Origin: an uncultured Sphingomonadales bacterium
Lineage (GTDB): Bacteria > Pseudomonadota > Alphaproteobacteria > Sphingomonadales > Sphingomonadaceae
DNA: 64,000 nucleotides
Assembly (NCBI GenBank): GCA_903839675.1
Contig: CAIMDB010000035.1
Coordinates: 116,975 to 180,974 of the forward strand
Direction of reading: 5' to 3'
A program made the translations under genes and the position numbers. The notes under the pieces were generated by a model. It was not told the origin of the DNA. It saw nothing but the letters and a program-made list of their open reading frames with translations, and ran no database searches. Every line of letters begins with the position of its first letter. The stretch's first letter is position 1. Below are positions 23,802-38,119 of this stretch, piece after piece.

Positions 23802-24710
23802 ATGGCCGACCAACCCGATCCAGCGAACAACCAGCCACCGGGCTATGTCCCGCCCAAGGTCTGGGTCTGGGATACGGCCAATGGTGGCGCGTTTGCGAAC
23901 ATCAACCGGCCCATTTCCGGCGCGACACACGACAAGGAGCTGCCGATCGGCAAGCATCCCTTGCAGCTCTATTCCATGGGCACGCCCAATGGCGTCAAGG
24001 TCACGATCATGCTCGAGGAGCTGCTCGCCCTCGGTGTCAGCGAGGCGGAATATGACGCCTGGATGATCATGATCGGAACGGGAGACCAGTTCGGCAGCGA
24101 CTTTGTGGCGATCAATCCGAACTCGAAAATCCCGGCGATGATGGACCATTCGGTCAGCCCGCCCGTCCGCCTGTTCGAAAGCGGCTCGATGCTCTTCTAC
24201 CTTGCGGAAAAGTTCGGCCATTTCCTGCCGACCGAAACGCACAAGCGCGCTGAGACGATGAACTGGCTAATGTGGCAAATGGCATCGGCACCTTATGTCG
24301 GTGGCGGCCTTGGCCATTTCTACGCTTATGCGCCGTTCAAGATGCAATATCCGATTGACCGGTTTGCGATGGAAACCAAGCGCCAGCTGCATGTACTCGA
24401 CACACATCTGGCCACAAACAAATATCTGGTCGGCGACGACTATACAATTGCCGATATCGCCATCTGGCCCTGGTATGGCTCCATCATGCGCGAGGCGTAT
24501 AGCGCGCAGGAATTCCTGAATGTGAAGGAATACACCCATCTCGACCGCTGGGTGACTGAGGTCGGCAAGCGCCCCGCCGTCATCCGTGGCCGTATGGTCA
24601 ACCGCACCTTCGGCCAGCCGGAAACCCAGCTGCGCGAACGCCATGACGCGAGCGATTTTGACAATAACCGCGAAGACATGGTCATCGCCCGCGACGGCAA
24701 GCGCATCTGA
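23802..24710 (+). CDS. yghU: Glutathione-dependent disulfide-bond oxidoreductase (GST Nu class)
   Basis: YVPPKVWVW, FANINRPISG, QLYSMGTPNGVKV, NPNSKIPA, LRERHDASDF. Confidence 0.9.
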   Translation: MADQPDPANNQPPGYVPPKVWVWDTANGGAFANINRPISGATHDKELPIGKHPLQLYSMGTPNGVKVTIMLEELLALGVSEAEYDAWMIMIGTGDQFGSDFVAINPNSKIPAMMDHSVSPPVRLFESGSMLFYLAEKFGHFLPTETHKRAETMNWLMWQMASAPYVGGGLGHFYAYAPFKMQYPIDRFAMETKRQLHVLDTHLATNKYLVGDDYTIADIAIWPWYGSIMREAYSAQEFLNVKEYTHLDRWVTEVGKRPAVIRGRMVNRTFGQPETQLRERHDASDFDNNREDMVIARDGKRI

Positions 24711-24738
24711 CTGACGTGCCGCCACCCACACATAAAGA

Positions 24739-24764
24739 CGGCGCCGGAGTTTCCCCCGGCGCCG
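24739..24764. terminator. Hairpin between convergent yghU and TonB receptor
   Basis: cggcgccgg-agtttccc-ccggcgccg 9-bp stem. Confidence 0.55.
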
Positions 24765-24810
24765 CAATTTTCCAAAGCCCCGCTGCCGGGCCTCTGGCAG
24801 GAGAGTTTCT

Positions 24811-27327
24811 TTAAAACTCGAACTTAACCGAAGCCGAGATCGTCCGTCCGGCCACCGAACGGGCAATCGACGTATCGTACGCCCCGTTGGCATCGGTATC
24901 GAACAGGCGGGTCTGATCACCTTCGGTAAAGCCGGCCTTGTTGAACAGGTTGTTCGCGTTGAGCGACAGGCTCAGATTGTCACGCACCTTTACGTTCGCA
25001 AAGGCGGTCACAGTGGCGAAGCCCGGCTGCACGAAGCGGTTTTCAAAGTCGACATAGGACTTGGACGTGCCGTTGACCGCGCCGCCCAGCGTGAAGCGCT
25101 CGGCAAAGGTGTAGGACGCACCAAGGTTATAGACCCAATCTGCCTGACGCTGCGGCTTTAGGCCGTTGCGCGCCGGATCATTAAAGTCCTGCTTGGCCTG
25201 TGCATCCGTCCAGGCCCCGTTACCGAACAGGTTGAAGCCGCCAATGTCATAGTTGAACTCAAGCTCAACACCGCTCGACGTGTAGATGCCACCGGTTGCA
25301 AGGTTGGTGGTGATCGAGAAGTTGCGCAGGTTTGCCCGGCCGTTGAAGTAGGTCACATAAAGCGAGAGCGATCCGGGGATGGATGCGCTCGTTTCCCGCC
25401 ACTTCACGCCCGCTTCAATCTGGCGGGTTGAGTTGCGGAGCAGGCCGGGTGCCACGATCTGCGCGTTTGAGAACGCCCCGAACTGGCGGTCGAAGTTCCA
25501 GGTCGTGCCGCGGCTGTAGCGGCTGAAAACGGCCAGATCATCGTTGATCTTGTAATTGGCGCCGAACGAGTAAGACGTGCCGGACAGGCTATCCCCAATC
25601 GTGCCGCGTGTGGCCGGATCGTTGATCGGCACGCCGATTTCCGCCGGACCGATGCTGCCATTCTTGTTCACGTCGACATTACGGGCCGAGCTGAACTGCG
25701 CAAAGCCGCTATAGTGCATCGTCTCACGACGCAGCGAACCGTCGAGGTTGATCGCGCCAAATGTCGCGTTCAGGCCACCGTAAACGGCGTCCACATCTGC
25801 CTGCATATCCCAAAGGATGTTGCAGCAGCCGCCGAACGCGCCGTTATAGGTGTAGACACCGGCTTCGGTGAAACCGGGGACGTTGATGATGGCTGCATCA
25901 TCCTGCGTGGACACGAGCATCCGGCCCCAATGCCAGGTCTGCTTGAAGTTCTGGACCATCTTGAAATAGCCAGCCGACGCCGTGATGTCGCCACCCGCTG
26001 TTTCAAACGACTTGGTCACGCGCAGGTCGTTTGCAAAATTGCCCATGTCGTTCAATTCGGTGTCGAACAGGGCGACTTCGGTGATGAGATTGTTGCCCGT
26101 CAGCGCCAGCAGTGATGCCGAGTTTACCGCAGCACCCGCATTCGGGCCATTGAAGAACACAGCCGTCGCGCCGGGGCCAAAATTGGTCGACAGGTAGCGG
26201 TCGGCAGCGTTCGCCGCATGCGTGAACGGCGCGACGAAGCGACCGCTCTGGTTGGCGTAGCGGATCTTGTTGTTGACGGTGAGGCCAGCCCCGAGATCAA
26301 ACTCAAATTCGCCGCCAATGGTCTGCGACTTGGTGTGGATGCCGTCGCGGAGGTTGCTGTTGATCAGGTTACCGCTGGCATCGATAATCGGGAAATTGAT
26401 GAGGTTCGGGCTGTGCAGCGTCTGCGTGGCGGCGTTGAGGCCGGGCAGGCTGTTGGTGAGGACACCCAGCGTCTTGCCGTAATTGGCAGCGCCAGCCGCA
26501 ACCGCTGCAACCGAACCTGCCACTTCGGTGATGCGCACCGTCTGCGGCATGTAGGTCGCGTCTTTCTTGTCGATGACCTGACCATAGATGCGCACGAAGC
26601 CGCCATCGAATTCCTTGGTCAGGCTCGCACGGAATTTGCCACCATCAACCGCATTGAAGCCTGCATTCCGAATGTCGCCGCCAATCTGATAATGGCCGCC
26701 CAAGTGGAAATAGAGATCATCGGCAAGGCTGGCGCCATATTCGGCGTCGACGCGCGTGTCCTTATAGTCCACGCCCTTCATGAACTGGATGCTACCGCCT
26801 TCGGTCTTCCCCGTCTTGTTGATGAGGTTGATGATGGCGCCATTGCCGTTGGTTGTCAGCGTTGCTGCACTACCGCCGCGCACCGATTCAATACGGGCGA
26901 GCGTGGCATCCACCTTCACAAAGCCATCAGCAGGCGCAAAGTTGTGATCGCCGAACAAGAGGACGGGCAGGCCATCTTCCTGAAGCGAGATGAACTGCGC
27001 ACCACCGGTGACGGCGGGAAGGCCGCGGACCTGCATGTTGGAGTTACCGCCGCCGGCCGAAGATTCAGCGCGGATGCCGGGCAAACGACGGAAGATTTCC
27101 GCCGTGCCGCGCGGCGCGACATTGGCCACGCTATCGACATCAAGGGCACTCACCGAGACGCTGGTGTCGAGGCGGTTGGTTGCCTTGGCAACGCCCGTCA
27201 CAACGATCTCAGCGACGCTGGTGTCGGTTTCGTCTGACGCGTCCTGTGCGACGGCGGGCTGCACGGTAAAAGCCGCGACCGCCAGAGTGACGAGCGACGC
27301 GTGCATACGGAATGCGGATTTCTTCAT
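24811..27327 (-). CDS. TonB-dependent receptor, sugar-uptake type
   Basis: Signal peptide (AVA-QD), TonB box EIVVTG, plug motifs VRGLP...QEDGLPV...IESVRGGSA, C-terminal Phe (SVKFEF); GGGGAGAGG RBS; divergent from LacI. Confidence 0.92.
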   Translation of the reverse strand: MKKSAFRMHASLVTLAVAAFTVQPAVAQDASDETDTSVAEIVVTGVAKATNRLDTSVSVSALDVDSVANVAPRGTAEIFRRLPGIRAESSAGGGNSNMQVRGLPAVTGGAQFISLQEDGLPVLLFGDHNFAPADGFVKVDATLARIESVRGGSAATLTTNGNGAIINLINKTGKTEGGSIQFMKGVDYKDTRVDAEYGASLADDLYFHLGGHYQIGGDIRNAGFNAVDGGKFRASLTKEFDGGFVRIYGQVIDKKDATYMPQTVRITEVAGSVAAVAAGAANYGKTLGVLTNSLPGLNAATQTLHSPNLINFPIIDASGNLINSNLRDGIHTKSQTIGGEFEFDLGAGLTVNNKIRYANQSGRFVAPFTHAANAADRYLSTNFGPGATAVFFNGPNAGAAVNSASLLALTGNNLITEVALFDTELNDMGNFANDLRVTKSFETAGGDITASAGYFKMVQNFKQTWHWGRMLVSTQDDAAIINVPGFTEAGVYTYNGAFGGCCNILWDMQADVDAVYGGLNATFGAINLDGSLRRETMHYSGFAQFSSARNVDVNKNGSIGPAEIGVPINDPATRGTIGDSLSGTSYSFGANYKINDDLAVFSRYSRGTTWNFDRQFGAFSNAQIVAPGLLRNSTRQIEAGVKWRETSASIPGSLSLYVTYFNGRANLRNFSITTNLATGGIYTSSGVELEFNYDIGGFNLFGNGAWTDAQAKQDFNDPARNGLKPQRQADWVYNLGASYTFAERFTLGGAVNGTSKSYVDFENRFVQPGFATVTAFANVKVRDNLSLSLNANNLFNKAGFTEGDQTRLFDTDANGAYDTSIARSVAGRTISASVKFEF

Positions 27328-27390
27328 AACCTCTCCCCTGACCTTGAACTGGGTCCGCTTTGTGCGGGACGATGCGTTGGATAGTCCCAG

Positions 27391-27427
27391 AACAATCGAT
27401 TGCAAACAAAAAATGCAATCGATTGTA
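27391..27427. promoter_or_regulatory. Two LacI-type palindromic operators (AACAATCGATTGCA, TGCAATCGATTGTA)
   Basis: CAATCGATTG palindrome with central CG, twice, 23 bp apart, in the TBDR/LacI divergent spacer. Confidence 0.8.
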
Positions 27428-27597
27428 AATAACGCCATCTTGGCACGAAGGCGTGGCATTCTAGCCACACCCCGCGCATTGCTGGCCCTTTGGACACACC
27501 ATGCACCCAGTCGCGCCGCTGGGACATTGAGTTTCGCCTTGATTTGCATCCCGAACCCCTGAAAGGTGAACAGCGTTGAGGGGTAGTCACTGTTCGC

Positions 27598-28602
27598 ATG
27601 AGCCAGATCAAGACCATGAAGGAACTTGCCGATCTGGCGGGCGTCACCACCGGCACGGTTTCGCGGGCTTTATCCGATTCTCCGCTGATTAGCCCCAAGA
27701 CGCGCGAACGGCTTCAGGCGCTCGCGCGAGAACATGGTTTCAAACCCAATCTGCTCGCCCGCAACCTGCGGACCCAGCGCACCGGCGCCATCGGCGTCCT
27801 CATCCCGCTTGGCCATGAAAAGGGCCAGCACATCTCAGACCCGTTCTTCATCACCATGCTCGGCTACCTCGCGGATGAACTGACCGAGCGCGGCTATGAT
27901 CTGCTGCTGTCCCGCGTCATCCCAGAGGACGAAAACTGGCTCGACCAATATGTCGGCTCCGGCAAGATCGACGGGCTCATCATCATCGGCCAGTCCAACC
28001 AGTCCGAAACGCTGGATGAAGTCGCGGCGCGCTATCGCCCGATGGTCGTTTGGGGCGGACATGCGCCGGGTCAGGCGCATTGCACCGTAGGGTCCGACAA
28101 TATTCTGGGGGGAGAGATGGCCGCCCAGCATCTGATCGACCGGGGCTGCCAACGCATCGCCTTTTTTGGGGACCCGCAGGCACTCGAAATCGCCCAACGC
28201 CTCGAAGGGTGCAAGCGCGCTCTGGCGCGGGCCGGGCTCGCCGACAAGCTCACCGTCTTGCCAGCCCATCTGGTGGCCGAAGCGGCGCACCCGGACATTG
28301 CCGGCTTTCTGGGTTCGGTCAGCGAACGGCCTCAGGGCATTTTCGCCGCGTCAGATGTTATCGCGATGAGCGCGCTACGTGCCTTGGCCGAATATGGCCT
28401 TGCTGTGCCCGGCGACGTGAAGGTTATCGGCTATGACGGCCTTGCCATTGGCGAACAGACCGTGCCGCGGCTGACGAGTATCTCTCAGGACCTCCGCTTG
28501 GGCGCGACAACGATGGTCGATCTGCTGCTGCGGCGGATAGCGGGCGAAGAGGCGGGGTCGGTCGTGCTGGACCCCAGACTGATCGTGCGGATGTCGAGCT
28601 AG
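27598..28602 (+). CDS. LacI-family transcriptional regulator
   Basis: TMKELADLAGVTTGTVSRAL HTH, FKPNLLARNL hinge, periplasmic-binding-fold effector domain. Confidence 0.95.
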   Translation: MSQIKTMKELADLAGVTTGTVSRALSDSPLISPKTRERLQALAREHGFKPNLLARNLRTQRTGAIGVLIPLGHEKGQHISDPFFITMLGYLADELTERGYDLLLSRVIPEDENWLDQYVGSGKIDGLIIIGQSNQSETLDEVAARYRPMVVWGGHAPGQAHCTVGSDNILGGEMAAQHLIDRGCQRIAFFGDPQALEIAQRLEGCKRALARAGLADKLTVLPAHLVAEAAHPDIAGFLGSVSERPQGIFAASDVIAMSALRALAEYGLAVPGDVKVIGYDGLAIGEQTVPRLTSISQDLRLGATTMVDLLLRRIAGEEAGSVVLDPRLIVRMSS

Positions 28603-29468
28603 GCCGAACCGGCAAGCGCGAAGGCACCCATTAGTCCCGCATCTTCTCCAAAGCCGGGGGCCATGACGATGGCGGACGCTTTCCCGACGAAGTAACCCGC
28701 GCCCAAAATGTCTGCCTCACTTTGGACAAGACCAAGCAAGCCCGGTGTCGCCATCACGCCGCCGCCGAAGATGATGCAGTCTGGCTCTAGGATCGCCTGA
28801 AGGTTGCACACGGCTTGGGCGAGATACCAGGCGATCATCTGCTGTTCGGTGCCACCGGATGTCAGTTCGGAAAGGGATTTGCCCCACCGCGCGAGGATGG
28901 CAGGGCCGCTTGCCAATCCTTCCAAACACGCCCCATGGAACGGGCAGGCGCCCGCAAAGCCCGTATCATCGGGATGGCGTGGGAGGCGCATATGCCCCAT
29001 TTCGGGGTGGCTCAGGCCATGCAGGATGCGACCATCCACCACGGCGCCACCGCCGACGCCCGTGCCGATGGTGAGGTAAACGCACAGGCGCTTGCCTCGC
29101 CCGCCCCCCCAGCGCGCTTCGGCAAGGGCGGCACCGTTGACGTCGGTGTCAATTGCGACGGGGCAACCAAAGGCGTCCGCAAAGGGCTGCACAAGATTGG
29201 CACCGCTCCAGCCCGGTTTAGGGGTGCGCGTGATGCTGCCCCAATTGGGCGAGGCCTTATCAAGATCAAGCGGGCCAAAGGCGGCGATGCCGAAGCCCGC
29301 AAAGGGAAGATCATGACTGCGGAACCAGTCACAGGCCGCAGACATCGTCTCGTGCGCGTCCAATGTCGGGATACGGTGGCGCTGGAGGATCGCGCCGTCA
29401 GCGTCGGCGATGCCAAGCACAAACTTGGTGCCGCCCGCCTCAATCAACCCGAAATGCGTTCCGCTCAT
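28599..29468 (-). CDS. ROK-family sugar kinase, probable fructokinase
   Basis: IEAGGTKFV, DTDVNGAALAE, YLTIGTGVGGG, HPEMGH, CPFHGACLEGLASG (fructokinase-type signature). Confidence 0.88.
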   Translation of the reverse strand: MSGTHFGLIEAGGTKFVLGIADADGAILQRHRIPTLDAHETMSAACDWFRSHDLPFAGFGIAAFGPLDLDKASPNWGSITRTPKPGWSGANLVQPFADAFGCPVAIDTDVNGAALAEARWGGGRGKRLCVYLTIGTGVGGGAVVDGRILHGLSHPEMGHMRLPRHPDDTGFAGACPFHGACLEGLASGPAILARWGKSLSELTSGGTEQQMIAWYLAQAVCNLQAILEPDCIIFGGGVMATPGLLGLVQSEADILGAGYFVGKASAIVMAPGFGEDAGLMGAFALAGSA

Positions 29469-30628
29469 TCCGCCTCCGCGCGGACGCTAGCATGATCACC
29501 ATCCAGATGAAGCCGGAATATAGGCGCAGGTCCGCCTGCGAAATGGCGGCGGCGCCAGTCGGGATCATCAACCACGTCATCGGCATCGGACACGCCGATG
29601 AGATCCGCAAAGCCATGAACCGTTAGATCAGACGTCACCCACCAGCTATAGCTTTGGAACGGCGCATCGGCGGGATTGGCGGCGACAAGGCCAGTGCCGT
29701 TCAAGGGACTGAACCGGCCAAGCGGGCTTTTGCCAACAGCACCGTATAAGCCATTGGGGCCAGAAGGGCCGGGCGCAAAGACCTTCCGTTGCGTTGACCA
29801 GAACAGATAGTAACGCCCATCCCGCGCTACCATCACGGGCCGTTCCAGCTCGTTGTTCAGGCCATCGGCAGACAAGACAGGCGGTAAAAGGTCCCAGCTG
29901 TCCTGATAGGCTGAGGCTGCCCGTGCAACGCCAATCACGCCGTTCCAGTCGCTGGTCGAGGATTGAAGCGAGCCGGTGAAAAACAGATAGTCCGCGCCCG
30001 TCGCCGGGTCCCGGAAGTGTGCCGGATCACGAAAGCCTTTGATCGCGCCGGGTAGGCCTTCAATTGCCCCCACGATGACATAGTGATGCCCATCGCTCCG
30101 AACCGACTCCATCGGCTCCGTCCAGCCGACGGTCGAAGCCGTTCCGTCTGTGACCGTCAGTTGCGCGGACAGTTGGAACAGCCGCTGCGCCACCGTCGGC
30201 TTCGGCTCCCCCCGCATTCCGGCTGCCGTGTAAAACAGCGTCAGTCGCCCGCTGGCAGGATCAAACAGAGCCGAGCCCGCCCATTCGCGGCTGCCGGGGT
30301 TGGCGATGTCGGGAAGGAGATTGCCGCAGTCTTTCCAAACGCCATCCTTCTCCGTCACCAAACGGATGCGCGCGCGGTGGTGGCGGGATTCCGGGTCTGG
30401 CTGAAGCGGCGCGGACAGCATGAGCCAAAGTGACCAGCCTTCAAAGCGCGCGGTTGTGCCGTCAACATTCTGGACGGGCCACATGTCCCAAAGATCAAAG
30501 CCGGGAAGGATGTCGACCACATCGGAGCGACGAATATGGGGGATGACGTGCGGCTGCCCTTCTACGATGCGCGCAACGCTATCGGGGAGCCAGACAGATG
30601 TCGGCAAAGTGCCCTGCGCTTCATCCAC
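29465..30628 (-). CDS. Glycoside hydrolase family 68 (levansucrase/invertase-like) without signal peptide
   Basis: Catalytic motifs LWDMWP (nucleophile), EWAGSA, FRDP (stabiliser), ELERP (acid/base). Confidence 0.88.
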   Translation of the reverse strand: MDEAQGTLPTSVWLPDSVARIVEGQPHVIPHIRRSDVVDILPGFDLWDMWPVQNVDGTTARFEGWSLWLMLSAPLQPDPESRHHRARIRLVTEKDGVWKDCGNLLPDIANPGSREWAGSALFDPASGRLTLFYTAAGMRGEPKPTVAQRLFQLSAQLTVTDGTASTVGWTEPMESVRSDGHHYVIVGAIEGLPGAIKGFRDPAHFRDPATGADYLFFTGSLQSSTSDWNGVIGVARAASAYQDSWDLLPPVLSADGLNNELERPVMVARDGRYYLFWSTQRKVFAPGPSGPNGLYGAVGKSPLGRFSPLNGTGLVAANPADAPFQSYSWWVTSDLTVHGFADLIGVSDADDVVDDPDWRRRHFAGGPAPIFRLHLDGDHASVRAEAE

Positions 30629-30688
30629 CTGTTTTGCCCCTCCATCCCCAACTCATCCGCCGCCCATATCACGCAAAGCGAAGATTTC

Positions 30689-30702
30689 AACAATCGATTG
30701 CA
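30689..30702. promoter_or_regulatory. Third copy of LacI-type operator AACAATCGATTGCA
   Basis: Identical 14-mer to 27391-27404, about 60 nt upstream of the GH68 start, in the galK-GH68 spacer. Confidence 0.8.
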
Positions 30703-30735
30703 TGACATCATGCGCGGTCGCACTTTTAGGATGGA

Positions 30736-31890
30736 TCATGCGAGCAGAGAGGCACCGTCCGATGCGGTTTCGACAAGCATCAGCGGCAGCCCGCCGTCCG
30801 GCGTGCGATAAACGGCAAGAACCGCGGCTTGCGCTGCCTCCAACCGCCGCTTGGAGAGCACAGCGACGACGGCACCCCCAAAGCCCCCGCCGGTCATGCG
30901 CGCGCCGCCATCCTCCGCAATGGCATCCTGCAACAGCGCAACCAGTTGATCGATGGGTGGAAGCGTGATCTCAAAATCATCGCGCATCGATGCGTGCGAT
31001 GCAGCCATTAACTGGCCCAATGTTTGAAGGTCGCCGCGCGAAAGGGCGTCGGCGGCAGACAATGTCCGGGCATTTTCGGTGATGACATGTCGCGCCCGGC
31101 GGAAGGTGATGTCGTCCATCAGGGCACGCGCGGCCTCCAGCATCTTCATGTCCGCATCGCGCAGCGCCGGGACGCCCAGCGCGCGCGACGCGGCCTCACA
31201 TTGCGTGCGCCGCGCATTATAGGCACCGTCCACCAGCCCGCGCTCAATGCCCGAATGCACAATCAGGATCGCAGCGTCAGGCGGGATGGGCACAGGTGTG
31301 CAGGCCAGCGACCGGCAATCAATGAGCAAGGCATGCCCCGCGAGGCCGCGTGCCGAAACCAACTGGTCCATGATCCCGATACGCGTCCCGACAAAATCCG
31401 TCTCAGCTGCCTGCCCCATGCGGGCCAAGGCGGTCGGGTCGATGGACAGCTTTGACAGCCGCCCCAACGCCAGGCCAATCGCCACGGTGAGGGACGCAGA
31501 GGAAGACAGGCCCGCACCCCGCGGCACATCCCCCGCCACCGCGAGCTGCGCTCCCGAGATGCGCAGGCCGGTGCGCTCCATGGCAATCACCATGCCACGC
31601 ACATAGTCCGCCCAATGCGGGTCCGGGCTATGTGCCATCTCCTTGTCGAGCAGAAAGCTGTCCCGCTCCCCCTGAAAATCGGTCGCCACCACCTCGATCC
31701 GGCGGCCCGCAATGCGCCTGGCGGCAACGAGTGTCTGGCCACTGATGGCCGCAGGAAGGACGAAGCCGTCATTATAATCGGTATGCTCGCCAATCAGGTT
31801 CACCCGACCCGGCGCGCGCGCAATCAGGTCCGGCACTCCACCATAGGCGTCCGCAAATCCCCGGCGGACGCGGTCGACAAGGTCAGTCAT
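30736..31890 (-). CDS. galK: Galactokinase
   Basis: [45 protein letters not shown]. Confidence 0.95.
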
Positions 31891-32921
31891 CGGGCATCCC
31901 GATAATGTACCGTCGATTGGGCCCGCAGCCGCTCCGCCGCCTGTTCCGCCGTCAGGTCCCGCTGCGGCTCAGCGAGCAATTCATAGCCCACCATGAATTT
32001 CCGGACCGAGGCGGACCGCAGCAGGGGCGGATAGAAGTGCGCGTGCAACTGCCAATGGTCGATCCGGGCAGGCCCGAAGGGCGCGCCGTGCCAGCCCATC
32101 GAATAGGGAAAGGCCGTGGCGAACAGATTGTCATAGCGGGTCGTCAATTCCTTCAGAACCGGCGCAAGGCTCCGGCGGCGCGGCGCTTCAAGGTCCGTCA
32201 TTCGCGCGATGCGAAAGCGCGGCAACAGCAACGTCTCAAACGGCCAAGCGGCCCAATAAGGAACGATCACGAGCCAATCGTCGGTTTCCACCACCACGCG
32301 CGGCCCACCCGCTTCCCGTTCGGCAAGTTCCAACAACATGGGTTGGCCATTCACGGCCAGCCAGTCGGCCTGTGTCCGGTCTTCGGTCGCTGGCTCATCC
32401 GGCAAATAGCTTGTGGCCCAGACCTGCCCGTGCGGGTGCGGATTTGAAGCGCCCATCATTGCACCACGGTTTTCAAACAGCTGGACATGGGCAAAGCGCT
32501 TCCCCAAATCCACCGTTTGTTCGATCCAAGCGTCAATCACACCTTCGATAGCTGGCAGGTCGAGCTCTGGCAGCGACTTGGAATGGTCGGGCGAAAAGCA
32601 GATGACCCGGCTCGTCCCTTGGGCACCCGCTGCATGGAACAAAGGGTCTAACGTCTGCGGCGCGGGCGCGTCGGGCAACAGCGCTGCAAAGTCATTCTCG
32701 AAAACATAGGTGCCCGCATAGTCTGGGTTCACCTCCCCCGTGACACGGGGGTTGCGGGGGCAAAGATAGCAGGCGGGATCATGCACCGGCCGGTCGGACA
32801 CATCAGGCGGGTCCTGTTGCCCCAGCCAAGGGCGCCGGGCGCGGTGCGGCGAGACCAGCAGCCATTCATCGCGCAGCGGGTTGTACCGCCTGTGCGGGTG
32901 TTCTGTAGGGTCAAACTCCAT
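31887..32921 (-). CDS. galT: UDP-glucose:hexose-1-phosphate uridylyltransferase
   Basis: [29 protein letters not shown] (HPH nucleophile), [12 protein letters not shown]. Confidence 0.96.
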
Positions 32922-32979
32922 CGCCAAGGGATAATCGCGTGGGAGGCACGCGGTTCCCTTGCGCGATGGAGGTTAGGGA

Positions 32980-33630
32980 TCAGGCGATATAGTGCGCCGT
33001 CGTTTTGGCCTTGATCTCATCCGCCGTCACGCCGGGTGCCGTTTCGACCAACCGGAACGGCGACGCATGATCCGGCCGCTGGAACACGGCGAGGTCGGTC
33101 ACGATCATGTCGACCACATTCTTGCCCGTCAGCGGCAAGGTGCACGCAGGAATGAACTTGGGGCTACCGTCCTTGGCATTATGCTCCATGACGACGATGA
33201 TCTTCTTGACGCCCGCGACAAGGTCCATCGCGCCGCCCATGCCCTTGATCATCTTGCCGGGGATCATCCAGTTGGCGATGTCGCCATTCTCGGCGACTTC
33301 CATTGCGCCGAGCACGGTCAGGTCGATATGCCCGCCGCGGATCATCGCGAACGACGCCGCGCTGTCGAAATAGGCCGTCTGCGGAAGTTCCGAAATGGTC
33401 TGCTTGCCCGCATTGATCAGGTCGGCATCTTCCTCCCCCTCAAACGGAAACGGCCCGATGCCGAGCATCCCGTTTTCGGACTGGAGCGTGACCGTGATGC
33501 CCGTCGGCACATGGTTCGCAACCAGCGTCGGAATACCGATGCCGAGATTGACGTAATATCCGTCCTGAAGCTCGCTCGCCGCGCGCGCGGCCATCTCGTC
33601 TCGTGTCCACCCTTTAGCTTCTTGGGCCAT
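32980..33630 (-). CDS. scoB: 3-oxoacid CoA-transferase subunit B
   Basis: [25 protein letters not shown]. Confidence 0.9.
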
Positions 33631-34337
33631 TATGCGGCCTCCTTCTGACGCACAGTGCGAAACTCGATCTTCTTGTCATAAGGCGCGCCGACAATCATGC
33701 GCTGCACGTAGACACCGGGCAGATGGATGCTGTCCGGATCAAGGCTGCCGACGGGGACGATCTCTTCCACCTCGACCACGCAGACCTTGCCGCAGGTCGC
33801 GGCGGGCAGGTTGAAGTTGCGGGCCGTCTTGCGGAAAACGAGGTTGCCGCTTTCATCGGCCTTCCATGCCTTCACAATGGCGAGGTCCGCAAAGATGCCG
33901 CGTTCAAGGATATAGTCCTGACCGTCAAAGCTCTTCACTTCTTTGCCGTCCGCCACTTGGGTGCCGACGCCGGTCTTGGTGTAGAATCCGGGGATGCCAG
34001 CGCCACCAGCGCGCATCCGTTCGGCCAGCGTCCCTTGCGGGCAAAACTCGACCTCCAGCTCGCCTGCCAGATACTGGCGCTCGAACTCCTTGTTCTCCCC
34101 GACATAGGAAGAGATCATTTTCTTGATCTGGCGCGTGCGCAGCAGCTTGCCGAGCCCTTCGCCGTCAATGCCGGCATTGTTCGACGCGACCGTAAGGCCT
34201 TTGATGCCCGACGCTACCATCGCATCAATCAGTCGTTCAGGGATGCCGCACAAGCCAAAGCCGCCTGCTGCAACGAGCATGTCATCGCGCAACAGCCCGT
34301 CCAGCGCGGACGCAGCATCAGGATAGAGCTTTTTCAT
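33630..34337 (-). CDS. scoA: 3-oxoacid CoA-transferase subunit A
   Basis: [35 protein letters not shown]. Confidence 0.9.
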
Positions 34338-34397
34338 GGAATCAGTCTCCGGAGTTCGCCCCCGCGCCTAGCGGACACTGTGCGCAATTGCACCCGT

Positions 34398-35096
34398 TTA
34401 GGCGACATTTGCTCCAAAAAGAGATCCAATTCCGGCTGTCGCCGCCATCGCAAAGGCGCCCCAGAAGGTGACACGCAACACAGCCTTACCCACTGGAGCA
34501 CCGCCCATCTTCGCGCCGACTCCGCCCAGCAGAGCCAAGAACAGGAGCGATCCCCCGGCAATCCAATAATCCACCGAAGCGCGCGGGGCGAGATAGGCCG
34601 CGACCAAAGGGAGGGCTGCACCGATGGAGAAGGCGAGCGCCGACGCCCATGCCGCCTGAATGGGGCGCGCCGCCATTTCGTCTGTGAGGCCAAGCTCATC
34701 GCGCAAATGCGCCTTGAGCGCATCCTTAGCCATCAACTGGTCGGTGACCTGTTCGGCAAGCGCGCGGTCCAACCCGCGTTTGTGATATATGGCAATCAGT
34801 TCCGCACGTTCAGCCGCAGGACTGTCCGCAAGCTCTGCCTTTTCCTTGGCGATGTCGGCTGCCTCGGCATCGGCCTGAGAGCTGACCGAGACATATTCCC
34901 CCGCCGCCATCGACATCGCGCCTGCGACAAGTCCGGCCGTTCCGGTCAACAACATGGTCGCGCTGTCGGCTCCAGCTGCCGCCACACCCAGCACGAGGCT
35001 GGATGTAGAAACAATACCATCATTGGCGCCAAGGACGGACGCCCGCAGCCAACCGATCCGTTCCAGAAGGTGCGTCTCGGTGTGGCGGCGGGCCAT
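34398..35096 (-). CDS. VIT1/CCC1 family iron/manganese transporter
   Basis: WLRASVLGANDGIVS, GAMSMAAGEYVSV. Confidence 0.92.
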   Translation of the reverse strand: MARRHTETHLLERIGWLRASVLGANDGIVSTSSLVLGVAAAGADSATMLLTGTAGLVAGAMSMAAGEYVSVSSQADAEAADIAKEKAELADSPAAERAELIAIYHKRGLDRALAEQVTDQLMAKDALKAHLRDELGLTDEMAARPIQAAWASALAFSIGAALPLVAAYLAPRASVDYWIAGGSLLFLALLGGVGAKMGGAPVGKAVLRVTFWGAFAMAATAGIGSLFGANVA

Positions 35097-35100
35097 GGGA

Positions 35101-36015
35101 TCAATACTCCAGTTTGAGGCCGGGACGGTTCCAGCGCACTTTGGCCAGTTTGCCGGTGCCAGATAGGCATAACCAGGCATCCATCATATCGTCCCCGCCA
35201 AAGCAGATATTGGTGGTGAAAACATCGGGCGTGGCCACGAATTCGACCAATTCGCCTTCTGGCGAGATGACCGAGATGCCGCACTCGCCGATGGTTGCGA
35301 CGCAGATATTGCCATTGGCTTCCATCGCAAGGCTATCAAAGAACTTGTAGCCCGCGGGACGATAGATCGGGATGCCCGGACCGCCGGGTCCCGCCGCATC
35401 ATCGACCTTGCCGGGTGCGATGACGTTGAACGCCATCAGGCGGCAGGTATAGGTTTCTGCTGCATAGAGCCGCTTGCCATCAGGCGAGAGGCCAATGCCA
35501 TTCGGGTTGTTGGATGGGAAGATAACTTCTTCCAGAAAGCTGCCATCGGTCTTCCCATAGAAGATGCCGACAATGTCGTGGCAGCGCTTGGCATAATCGA
35601 CCTTGCCGTGGTCGGTAAACCAGAAGCCGCCATGGCTGTCGAACACTATGTCGTTCGGCCCGCGCAGCACGCAGCCAAAATCGCCGGACTTGTAGAGGAC
35701 TTCGACAGCGCCGGTTTCGATATCGATCCGCTCGATCCGGCCGCCGGAATAGTCGTCGGCGATGCCGTGCGGCGCATATTCACCTTGCGGGCCGCGGGCC
35801 CAGTTGAAGCCGCCATTATTGGTGCAATAGAGTTTGCCATCGGGCCCAAGCGCAAGGCCGTTGGGACCGCCGCCTGGTTTTGCCACCACGTCCTTGCGAC
35901 CATCGGGCCACACCCGTGTAATCTGCCCCAGCGCAATCTCGGTCAGAATGACGCTGCCATCCGGCATCGTGACGGGACCTTCAGGGAAGGCAAGGCCGTC
36001 TGTAACAATCTCCAT
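35101..36015 (-). CDS. SMP-30/gluconolactonase/LRE family protein
   Basis: FPEGPV, GGPNGLA, PNDIVFD, PNGIGLSPDG, FDSLAMEANGNICVA. Confidence 0.88.
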   Translation of the reverse strand: MEIVTDGLAFPEGPVTMPDGSVILTEIALGQITRVWPDGRKDVVAKPGGGPNGLALGPDGKLYCTNNGGFNWARGPQGEYAPHGIADDYSGGRIERIDIETGAVEVLYKSGDFGCVLRGPNDIVFDSHGGFWFTDHGKVDYAKRCHDIVGIFYGKTDGSFLEEVIFPSNNPNGIGLSPDGKRLYAAETYTCRLMAFNVIAPGKVDDAAGPGGPGIPIYRPAGYKFFDSLAMEANGNICVATIGECGISVISPEGELVEFVATPDVFTTNICFGGDDMMDAWLCLSGTGKLAKVRWNRPGLKLEY

Positions 36016-36118: not shown

Positions 36119-37969
36119 CTATCTGATCCTTGTCTGAAACGACACGACAAAGCTTGGCTGCCCAGCCGCTGTCGCCCCGGCCATGGTGCCGGTTGGGCGG
36201 ATGCACACATATCGGATCGTCGGGTCAAAGCCTGCGGTGGGCACATCGGTGCAGCCTGCAAAGTTCGCAGGGGCTGTTGCTGACCTGGACCAGCGTACGT
36301 CGGTAGCCGCATTGAATGTCAGCCCACTCACAGGTGTGCCGTTGGCGAATGTCACGGTGCTGGCGCCATTATACTCCAGTGTCGTCGGCAACGGATCGAG
36401 GATGAACACCGTGCTGCTGTCGACGCCCAGCGTGCCGGAGTTTGATATGTTGATCGAATAGCGCAGCACGGCGCCTGGGATCAGCTTGGGGTTGGTCGTG
36501 CCGTTGATGGGATCAGAGAGGACAGTTGAGGATTTGACCGTTGTCAGCGAGGCATTGGCCCCCCGTGGAGTGTTAGTCACGGTGCAGGTGATCAGATCTC
36601 CAAGGATTGGCGTGATGGTCGCTGGAACGGCAAAGGCCGTCGTCGCGCCAGTCCGCGCGTTGGTGCACGACATGGTGGCGGTATACTGGGACAGCACCGT
36701 GGAGCCCGAGGCGGCTTCCGCAAATGTATAGGGTTGCCCGGCCGTTACCTGAAGAAGGGCTGTGGCACCTGTGGTAACGGTTGTGCCCGTACCAGTCGTC
36801 GTCGTCGAGGCAACGGACGTCGCACCTTGGGCAATACTCATCGTAAATTGGTCGCTGGCAAAGCGCCGCCCCGTGCCGCCAAGCGCCTTTTGGATGCGAA
36901 GGTGCGGAAAGGCTGTGTTTGTAAAGGTGCAGGCGATGGCATCGCCAAATTGCAAGGCGCCAAAGTTAAAACTCGAGGTCGCGACATTGGTTGGCAACGG
37001 CGTGGTCGATCCAGCGGTCCCGTTGGTGCAGGTGAGGCTGGGGCTGTAACTGGTGAGCGGGCTGACGCTGCCGCCAGCCATCGACTCAGACAGCGTGAGC
37101 GGAACGCCGGAGGCCAGCGAGACCGCCGCTGCCGTAAACGGCCCCGTTCCTGTGCCCGTCGTTAGGCCTGTCGCAAGCGTCGTTCCCGTGGACGTCGCGG
37201 TCACGTCGAATCTGAATTGATCAGCCGCGTTAACGCGCGCGCCGCTGATCACCTTTGTCAGTCGCATCGAGGCAAAGCGGACGGCAAACATCGCGCCTTG
37301 AAGGCCACCGCCAACTAAGGTTGTGCGCACCGTTGTCGGGCTGGTGGATCCGACAATATAGCCGCCGACCGTCCCCGGCACACCGGTTTCTGTAAACGTC
37401 TGCGTGCCGATGCCGGTTGTGGTGGGATAGGTCGTCCCCGTGATTGGATCCACCTGATCAAGCAGTGTCCAATTGCCGCCGTTCGTGTTGAACGACAGGG
37501 ATTCACCATCGTTGGTCGATTCCGCATCGGCGCCCACAAACATGTAAGCAGTCACTGCAGGAGCTCCCGGAGGGGGCGTAATGAGAATATTTGAAATAGT
37601 GACCTGCGTCGTTCCAGCCGCCGATTGATAAAGGATCGGTCGGTTAGGGATGCCTAAAAAGGCGGTATTCCCGACGGCAGCTCCGCCCCAGGATGGCGCC
37701 GCAATAGACGTAATCGCGGCACCGGTTGTTCTGACTGTAAAGGTCAGAACGGCACCGTCGGACAGGGTGTAACTGAAATTCTGGCCGGCGCCGGTCCGCG
37801 CGGTTGCATCGTTGTACGTCGTGAAGTCCAGCCAGCAATAGGTCTGCCAGCTTGCAGGCGCGGTCCCTTGCGACGTCGCAGGCGCACAAACAGCGGCGAG
37901 CGCGGACCCAGACCAGGTCATGACGAAAACAGCAAACAACCGCGCGATCAGGCGCGCAATTGCCAGCAT
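36119..37969 (-). CDS. Secreted CshA/CshB-type adhesin-related protein with two Ig/prealbumin-like repeats and a C-terminal DUF11-like domain
   Basis: Signal peptide (ALA-AV), QTYCWLDF N-terminal domain, two repeats each ending L/MxCTN, tail KSSTVLSDPINGTTNPKLIPGA...Y; Thr/Gly/Ala rich. Confidence 0.7.
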   Translation of the reverse strand: MLAIARLIARLFAVFVMTWSGSALAAVCAPATSQGTAPASWQTYCWLDFTTYNDATARTGAGQNFSYTLSDGAVLTFTVRTTGAAITSIAAPSWGGAAVGNTAFLGIPNRPILYQSAAGTTQVTISNILITPPPGAPAVTAYMFVGADAESTNDGESLSFNTNGGNWTLLDQVDPITGTTYPTTTGIGTQTFTETGVPGTVGGYIVGSTSPTTVRTTLVGGGLQGAMFAVRFASMRLTKVISGARVNAADQFRFDVTATSTGTTLATGLTTGTGTGPFTAAAVSLASGVPLTLSESMAGGSVSPLTSYSPSLTCTNGTAGSTTPLPTNVATSSFNFGALQFGDAIACTFTNTAFPHLRIQKALGGTGRRFASDQFTMSIAQGATSVASTTTTGTGTTVTTGATALLQVTAGQPYTFAEAASGSTVLSQYTATMSCTNARTGATTAFAVPATITPILGDLITCTVTNTPRGANASLTTVKSSTVLSDPINGTTNPKLIPGAVLRYSINISNSGTLGVDSSTVFILDPLPTTLEYNGASTVTFANGTPVSGLTFNAATDVRWSRSATAPANFAGCTDVPTAGFDPTIRYVCIRPTGTMAGATAAGQPSFVVSFQTRIR

Positions 37970-38119
37970 CTTGTCGTTCCCCAACGCAGTCCCCCGGCTA
38001 CTGGAGCCCCAAACTCGGGCCCGCACTCTGCGGCTTTGCTAAATGAAAACGGTGAATATATCCATAATGGACAGATTATGGCTGTTGCGTGGATGCCCTG
38101 TGAACCGCATGAGAGGCGC

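Follow-up and report, generated by a model that had tools for sequence, protein, structure and literature searches.

A probable LacI-controlled sucrose-scavenging regulon with a leaderless GH68 enzyme in a freshwater sphingomonad, with signs of reduction from a raffinose operon

In Xanthomonas campestris, the sux CUT locus encodes a TonB-dependent receptor (TBDR; SuxA), a GH13 sucrose hydrolase (SuxB), a major facilitator superfamily (MFS) transporter (SuxC) and a LacI-type repressor (SuxR), and SuxC-type transporters are conserved in Sphingomonas SKA58 and Erythrobacter, where other sucrose enzymes serve (Blanvillain et al. 2007, PMC1790865). Here, we describe a locus of similar composition in a 64,000-nt stretch of DNA (the window) from an uncultured Sphingomonadales bacterium (GenBank assembly GCA_903839675.1, contig CAIMDB010000035.1, positions 116,975 to 180,974). 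By component type the two systems agree, as each has a TBDR, an MFS inner-membrane transporter (putative in the present case), a predicted intracellular sucrose-splitting enzyme and a LacI-family repressor, with the TBDR and LacI genes next to that of the sucrose-cleaving enzyme. They differ in that the enzyme here belongs to GH68 rather than being a SuxB-like GH13 hydrolase of the amylosucrase type, that a putative fructokinase appears to be co-transcribed with it, and that the MFS gene lies elsewhere in the genome, an operator being its sole connection to the locus. Moreover, relatives of the window locus extend to raffinose via a GH36 alpha-galactosidase and galTK. We consider it probable that the locus belongs to a LacI-controlled sucrose-scavenging regulon of the sux kind, reduced from a raffinose regulon, in a streamlined freshwater sphingomonad near Chakrabartia.

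Genes were called by open reading frame (ORF) listing and profile searches (Pfam, NCBIfam). These verified the six locus genes and bore out the arrangement described in an earlier annotation made from the letters of the window (the sequence-only reading): the TBDR gene is divergent from lacI, and a minus-strand string of galT, galK, GH68 and ROK-family kinase genes converges on plus-strand lacI. That reading had also seen neither a permease nor an alpha-galactosidase in the locus, and none was found within it by profile searches. The genes are as follows:

24811..27327, minus strand: TBDR of the outer membrane, 838 aa long when read from the corrected start; Pfam Plug and TonB_dep_Rec_b-barrel
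27598..28602, plus strand: LacI-family repressor; Pfam LacI and Peripla_BP_3
28599..29468, minus strand: ROK-family sugar kinase, probable fructokinase; Pfam ROK, E 2.7e-58
29465..30628, minus strand: GH68 enzyme, leaderless, 387 aa; Pfam PF02435, E 1.9e-58
30736..31890, minus strand: galactokinase GalK; TIGR00131, 344 bits against a cut-off of 226.65
31887..32921, minus strand: galactose-1-phosphate uridylyltransferase GalT, from ATG (alternative TTG at 32927); NF008724, 551.5 bits against a cut-off of 448

Both GalK and GalT thus scored above the curated equivalog cut-offs for Leloir enzymes. Start and stop codons overlap by 4 nt at galT/galK and again at GH68/ROK. All locus genes, galTK included, are under purifying selection (dN/dS of 0.02 to 0.15 against four relatives; TBDR 0.04, LacI 0.02, GalK about 0.10, GalT 0.06 to 0.08).

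The components are connected by a 14-bp palindrome (consensus TGCAATCGATTGCA), which occurs twice before TBDR/LacI, once before GH68-ROK, and once before an MFS gene elsewhere in the genome:

27391..27404, no strand assigned: operator O1, AACAATCGATTGCA, in the TBDR/LacI divergent region
27414..27427, no strand assigned: operator O2, TGCAATCGATTGTA, 23 bp from O1 and 87 to 100 nt upstream of the TBDR start
30689..30702, no strand assigned: operator O3, TGCAATCGATTGTT (as read on the gene strand), in the galK-GH68 spacer, 61 to 74 nt upstream of the GH68 start
Genome contig C1, position 35515: fourth operator, from the palindrome search, 55 to 68 nt upstream of the MFS gene

When the whole 2.9-Mb genome was searched for the palindrome with up to two mismatches, only seven places matched, and four of these were the sites upstream of TBDR/LacI (two), GH68 (one) and the C1 MFS gene (one). 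The 10-nt core CAATCGATTG occurs three times in the window (27393, 27416 and 30691) against 0.14 expected, a count reached in none of 100 shuffles, so that the operator proposed earlier between galK and GH68 is real. The same signal recurs in related loci (described below), which hold 185 operator-like sites in 1.19 Mb, nearly all of them no more than 450 bp upstream of an MFS, GH68, LacI, TBDR or tryptophan-halogenase-like gene. No operator was found upstream of galT, either in this genome or in the 80 related loci. O3 overlaps a -35 element placed by eye (TTGTTG-N17-GATATG), and O3 together with the region downstream of it is identical in five relatives, including one that lacks galTK (L003).

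The position of O1 and O2 depends on where the receptor begins. The longest TBDR ORF spans 24811 to 27549, but translation of the 5' end places the true start at 27327, 74 codons in. From there, the N-terminus reads as a signal peptide (MKKSAFRMHASLVTLAVAAFTVQPAVAQ, ending AVAQ and followed by D) and then a TonB-box-like AEIVVTG. With this start, the divergent region between TBDR and lacI measures 270 bp (27328 to 27597) and not 48 bp. The spurious 74-codon extension (27328 to 27549) covers both operators; hence, the control region would go unseen in automatic annotation that picks the longest ORF. If the long ORF were right, a 48-bp "intergenic" region would remain, but this was rejected as an operator site, as no operator lies there and the operators are inside the extension. 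At the other end of the gene, a terminator-like hairpin directly follows the stop codon:

24738..24765, minus strand: terminator-like hairpin directly 3' of the TBDR stop; 12-bp stem with 10 G-C pairs

A permease search elsewhere in the genome showed that the system has a candidate transporter, although none lies in the locus. The MFS gene on contig C1 (34056 to 35447) is an ortholog of the locus-embedded MFS genes of two related loci, L006 and L078, which come from the nearest outgroup genomes (77% to 79% identity), and stands behind the same operator. Together, the identity and the shared operator indicate that the genome does encode the permease and that the operator links it to the locus. 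Its sole NCBIfam match, below threshold but over the full length, was to the plant-type sucrose/H+ symporter family, and the gene is accordingly predicted to encode a sucrose-type carrier and, we infer, to belong to the regulon. The genes around it (fabD/fabG/fabF and pgl) include no further sugar genes. The C1 operator region (C1:35448-35683, equal to L081:9449-9684) is itself divergent, with the 6-phosphogluconolactonase gene pgl on its other side, and the repressor might therefore act on pgl as well.

The kinase fits the same scheme. Its best NCBIfam match was the ScrK fructokinase (NF045550, 234.2 bits, below the equivalog cut-off of 400), no second ROK-family kinase was found in the genome, and contig C34 encodes a separate glucokinase of the Glk type. 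A fructokinase role therefore fits in spite of the ScrK score, and the earlier proposal that fructose goes to this kinase is likely to be right. The stop codons of the ROK gene and lacI overlap convergently by 4 bp (28599 to 28602), an overlap also kept in the distant relative L010 (10038 to 10041).

Membership of the central enzyme in GH68 is clear, with a PF02435 score of 198.9 bits (gathering cut-off 27) and matches to 36 GH68 sequences of solved structure. Its start codon is a GTG behind a GGAGG ribosome-binding site, and relatives conserve this start. The catalytic triad is kept, namely the nucleophile D48 (in WD-W), the transition-state residue D201 (RDP) and the acid/base E262 (E-x-E-R). 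These three residues and Q280 are invariant across 81 GH68 homologs, and the triad aligns with that of the nearest solved structure, the inulosucrase of Halalkalicoccus jeotgali (7bj4; E 9e-60, 36% identity). An AF2 model (pLDDT 90.1, pTM 0.91) has the single-domain five-bladed beta-propeller fold, with a Foldseek TM of 0.86 to 7bj4 and GH68 enzymes as all of the top 48 matches in the PDB. Q280 follows the acid/base Glu by 18 residues and corresponds to SacB Arg360. This position is Arg in SacB and other Gram-positive enzymes and His in Gram-negative levansucrases. The archaeal, fructan-forming 7bj4 shares the ELERP acid/base motif but has His where the sphingomonad clade has Gln. No signal peptide was found in any of the 81 clade members. 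With an invariant Gln at the Arg360 position and no leader, the enzyme departs from a polymer-forming levansucrase in the SacB sense (EC 2.4.1.10). In two relatives the GH68 frame is interrupted, by an in-frame stop in Sphingomonas pituitosa (L065:8001-9116) and by one TGA in a genome of the same genus as the window's (G024, C370:5775-6902); these may be pseudogenes or sequencing errors.

The closest biochemical reference for this clade is the GH68 of Novosphingobium aromaticivorans DSM 12444, Saro_1879, which has been deleted as a "putative sacB" in strain 12444-delta-1879 (PMC10734531). It has a similarly compact size, and its reported residues at the positions of SacB Ser164, Glu340 and Arg360 are Ala, Glu and Gln, respectively. 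Ala118, Gln274 and the Glu at SacB E340 match A117, Q280 and E260 of the window enzyme, indicating the same subfamily; the GH68 of N. subterraneum (L022) is 56% identical to that of the window. Saro_1879 is known in vitro only, at very high sucrose, and has been described as a levansucrase. Its kcat/Km in vitro is 40.7 s-1 mM-1 for hydrolysis versus 0.303 for transfructosylation, it had the largest share of hydrolysis among five enzymes assayed, and it favored raffinose over sucrose as a donor (PMC7432509). Such behavior is more in keeping with a catabolic beta-fructosidase acting on sucrose and raffinose than with a polymerase, and the leaderless GH68 of the window is most likely used as an intracellular invertase.

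To place the locus among its relatives, one genome per species was scanned, which gave 107 GH68 relatives, and the neighbors of GH68 in the best 80 of these 107 loci, almost all from Sphingomonadales, were mapped by tblastn, clustering and Pfam. The nearest GH68 relatives are from Chakrabartia-like metagenome-assembled genomes (MAGs; 88% to 94% identity). Genes found near GH68, out of 80 loci, were:

Regulation, uptake and kinase: LacI in 65, TBDR in 58, the same MFS in 58, ROK kinase in 43
Glycosidases and galactokinase: GH36 alpha-galactosidase in 36, galK in 19, GH32 in 13, GH27 in 2
Other: tryptophan-halogenase-like gene in 35, TPR/2OG-oxygenase gene in 21

A fuller version of the operon is seen in loci L007 to L010 and L014, where the order is operator, MFS, GH36, galT, galK, operator, GH68 and ROK, followed by a convergent LacI gene, two operators and TBDR. 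For example, in L010, from the isolate Aquisediminimonas sediminicola, MFS and GH36 are 4 nt apart, GH36/galT and galT/galK each overlap by 4 nt, and the GH36 has no signal peptide. On these gene contents, we read the L010 operon as a complete cytoplasmic pathway for raffinose, melibiose and sucrose. The synteny survey also linked galTK to GH68 in 19 of the 80 loci, in at least three GH68 clades; in 14 of them the pair lies between GH36 and GH68 in one operon. Hence, the link between galTK and GH68 is not due to chance, and the raffinose idea of the sequence-only reading is right for the locus family.

Two known routes for raffinose invite comparison with this fuller operon. The enterobacterial raf operon consists of the RafR repressor, the GH36 alpha-galactosidase RafA, the permease RafB and the GH32 invertase RafD, and it thus resembles the sphingomonad operon in its LacI-type repressor, permease, cytoplasmic alpha-galactosidase and beta-fructofuranosidase. 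It differs in that its invertase is a GH32, its permease is of the LacY type, and it has no TBDR, Leloir genes or kinase; in the window genome, moreover, the alpha-galactosidase is missing. In lactobacilli, GH68 levansucrase likewise acts on raffinose-family sugars with a GH36 alpha-galactosidase (reviewed in PMC3458588), but there the GH68 is extracellular and wall-bound and sugars of the melibiose type are then imported, whereas both sphingomonad enzymes appear to be cytoplasmic.

Several loci carry additional genes. A tryptophan-halogenase-like flavoprotein (35/80) and a TPR/2OG-Fe(II)-oxygenase protein (21/80) accompany the TBDR of raffinose-type loci, often behind an operator of their own (e.g., L073:12993-14513 and L010:14162-15769), and both are absent from the window's locus. 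A GH32 beta-fructofuranosidase lies between GH68 and LacI in 13 loci (L070:9124-10437, L064:9037-10368 and 11 others), mostly in Novosphingobium and in two Parerythrobacter. Judging from the N-termini in L064 and L070, it appears leaderless, such that two different fructosidases occur in one regulon. Furthermore, some Sphingobium and Sphingomonas loci have a second type of GH36 beside GH68 (L054:10012-12213, also L075 and L047). The L054 GH36 carries a clear signal peptide (MRLLATFTAIVCLTSPAVLLAKVSASA), which suggests periplasmic trimming of alpha-galactosides in those species.

Compared with the fuller operon, the window's locus is reduced. A GH68 tree built by a quick method places the window's clade together with L010, L078, L004 and L006 (SH-aLRT 94), all four of which carry MFS-GH36 immediately upstream, while MFS-GH36 is gone from the locus throughout the window's clade. 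LacI of the window is 69% to 75% identical to that of L004 to L010 and L078. In L003, whose GH68 is 88% identical to the window's, galTK is gone too and the operator/promoter region before GH68 is unchanged; comparison of the galTK indel boundaries with L003 gave no homology revealing the direction of the indel. The simplest history suggested by these gene orders is a stepwise reduction of a raffinose operon.

The search for an alpha-galactosidase covered the organism's own genome assembly (38 contigs, 96% complete). Six-frame Pfam HMM searches found no GH36, GH27, GH4 or GH97 in the genome, and tblastn with locus-type GH36, GH27, GH32 and halogenase-like proteins gave no match. Looking elsewhere in the genome for GH27 and GH36, as had been suggested earlier, therefore yielded neither, and the arrangement of a raf-like operon, an alpha-galactosidase encoded with a permease and a beta-fructosidase, is found neither in the locus nor in the genome. 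Of 24 genomes from the same genus, 16 have GH68 and 12 have GH36, which makes the alpha-galactosidase a variable accessory. Without it, the galactose of raffinose cannot reach GalK in this organism; galTK, being under purifying selection, are functional Leloir genes no longer fed by the sucrose system. Between the coenzyme A (CoA)-transferase B stop and galT lies a strong hairpin:

32916..32971, minus strand: hairpin between the CoA-transferase B stop and galT; dG -37.4 kcal/mol, z -6.9

It fills the 52-bp gap there, its 3' arm holds both candidate galT starts, and it is conserved in L005 and L001. The hairpin was rejected as a repeat element, being unique in the genome, and could be a terminator, an insulator or a translational brake on galT.

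The receptor points in the same direction as the missing alpha-galactosidase. The window TBDR shares 29% to 37% identity with its counterparts in loci that encode an alpha-galactosidase (n = 35), compared with 31% to 69% (median 39%) in loci that lack this enzyme (n = 21); the Mann-Whitney P value is about 1e-8. The matches at 68% to 69% are L053, L062 and L076, all of them MFS-GH68-LacI-TBDR-ROK loci without GH36. These identities indicate that a GH68-ROK-LacI backbone of the raffinose type has been combined with a receptor of the sucrose-only type. Taken with the absence of an alpha-galactosidase from the genome, they make a sucrose-specialized, reduced descendant the best reading of the locus. 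The raffinose proposal of the sequence-only reading thus holds for the locus family, with its GH36-galTK-GH68 operons, and fails for this genome on the missing alpha-galactosidase, the operator-less galTK and the TBDR type. Its suggestion of fructan use is unsupported, as the genome has no GH32, while gene content supports its proposal of a TonB-dependent fructoside (sucrose) system with GH68 in place of GH13.

Based on the above, sucrose would cross the outer membrane through the TBDR and reach the cytoplasm via the unlinked SuxC/GPH-sucrose-like MFS symporter (C1:34056-35447). The leaderless GH68 would then split it into glucose and fructose, after which the translationally coupled ROK kinase would phosphorylate the fructose and the separate Glk the glucose. 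LacI is predicted to repress three units (TBDR, GH68-ROK and MFS), and probably its own gene as well, via the TGCAATCGATTGCA palindrome. In evolutionary terms, galTK would historically be part of the same system, whose operon in sister lineages, MFS-GH36-(galT-galK)-GH68-ROK, is a raffinose pathway. In the window's lineage MFS-GH36 would have left the locus, the MFS gene moving together with its operator and GH36 disappearing from the genome altogether. The TBDR would have been exchanged for the type of alpha-galactosidase-less loci, and galTK would have remained as a Leloir pair that has no operator but is still under selection.

Several observations weigh against this sucrose-scavenging reading, and some of them lend themselves to other explanations. 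The main uncertainty lies in the cellular location of GH68 and its reaction in vivo. Gram-negative GH68 enzymes are typically leaderless yet exported, and those of Zymomonas, Erwinia and Pseudomonas leave the cell without a signal peptide, so that a missing leader is no proof of a cytoplasmic location. The enzyme might then be exported and act as a levansucrase or inulosucrase, forming fructan or fructo-oligosaccharides outside the cytoplasm, with the TBDR and kinase only salvaging the products. In line with this, the closest solved structure is an inulosucrase, and at high sucrose in vitro Saro_1879 forms levan (40 g/L) as well as fructo-oligosaccharides with as many as 13 units (PMC7432509). 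We nonetheless regard export as unlikely, given that GH68 is translationally coupled to a cytoplasmic kinase, shares its sugar repressor with uptake genes, and in relatives belongs to an operon that also encodes GalT, GalK, a GH36 without a leader and a permease of the sucrose type. In addition, all 81 members have Gln instead of the polymer-linked Arg/His, hydrolysis by Saro_1879 is about 130-fold more efficient than transfer (PMC7432509), and the genome contains no GH32 levanase or inulinase for re-use of fructan.

Saro_1879 also prefers raffinose over sucrose as a donor (PMC7432509), and with an assembly that is 96% complete in 38 contigs, an alpha-galactosidase could sit in the missing part. 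Both points would suit a complete raffinose-family system in this organism, in which the TBDR imports raffinose, GH68 frees fructose, and an unrecognized or unassembled alpha-galactosidase frees galactose for GalK and GalT. So would the selected galTK pair directly upstream of GH68, the full MFS-GH36-galTK-GH68 operons of sister lineages, and the occurrence of GH36 in half of the genus genomes (12/24). Against this stand the empty HMM and tblastn searches, the lack of an operator before galT, a TBDR of the class found in loci without alpha-galactosidase, and the very close relative L003, which has dropped galTK and kept all else; such a system is thus quite unlikely here. It is highly improbable that galTK and GH68 adjoin by accident and that the two modules were never functionally related. 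In this genome galTK is indeed operator-less and follows unrelated CoA-transferase genes, and L003 does without it, yet the pair stands beside GH68 in 19 of 80 loci from at least three clades, and in 14 of these it is flanked by GH36 and GH68, the stop codons overlapping with the starts that follow. Two further points concern the sucrose-scavenging regulon and its history directly. A sigma-70 consensus scan of positions 24500 to 35400 gave four matches versus 2.8 expected, none of them at the operators, so that the promoters are placed by eye only. Lastly, the direction of gene gains and losses rests on the quick tree, with moderate support.

The surroundings of the locus are unrelated to it, with a YghU-like glutathione S-transferase (GST) gene on one side and 3-oxoacid CoA-transferase A/B genes and a VIT-family gene on the other. 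A few kilobases away (36119 to 38026, minus strand) lies a gene whose 635-aa product contains two domains of the SpaA-like prealbumin fold (PF20674, E 4e-62), which is unusual for an alphaproteobacterium.

Describing the locus as a candidate new system, as the sequence-only reading did, overstates its novelty, since sux-like sphingomonad loci have been noted (PMC1790865) and Saro_1879 has been characterized in vitro (PMC7432509). A literature search found no specific account of a sphingomonad GH68/TBDR/raffinose regulon. What is new is the identification of the enzyme of sux-like sphingomonad loci as a distinct leaderless GH68 clade, together with the operator, the GH36/galTK raffinose extension, and the reduced, split form described here. 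No new class of mechanism is opened by the regulon. We see an even chance that a broader statement holds, namely that the whole leaderless sphingomonad GH68 clade consists of cytoplasmic, catabolic beta-fructofuranosidases at the core of a widespread TonB-dependent sucrose/raffinose regulon (TBDR, GPH-type MFS, GH36, galTK, GH68, ROK and one LacI operator), and that this genome represents a recent switch from raffinose to sucrose alone, in which GH36 was lost, the TBDR exchanged and the permease gene moved.

To our knowledge, GH68 enzymes have been treated almost exclusively as secreted fructan synthases, and the GH68 of N. aromaticivorans is routinely deleted as an unwanted "sacB" gene and exploited as a levansucrase. 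Gene context across the 80 loci points to another job, intracellular cleavage of the sucrose bond after TonB-dependent uptake of sucrose or raffinose. If so, high-affinity scavenging of the sux/CUT kind would extend to many environmental and plant-associated Alphaproteobacteria, and the defined operator and regulon could be used for their annotation. The switch from raffinose to sucrose could adapt streamlined lake bacteria to sucrose leaking from phototrophs, and the series from the full operon through the loss of MFS-GH36 to the loss of galTK would illustrate, in a case from nature, how streamlined genomes cut such loci down and adapt them to new uses.

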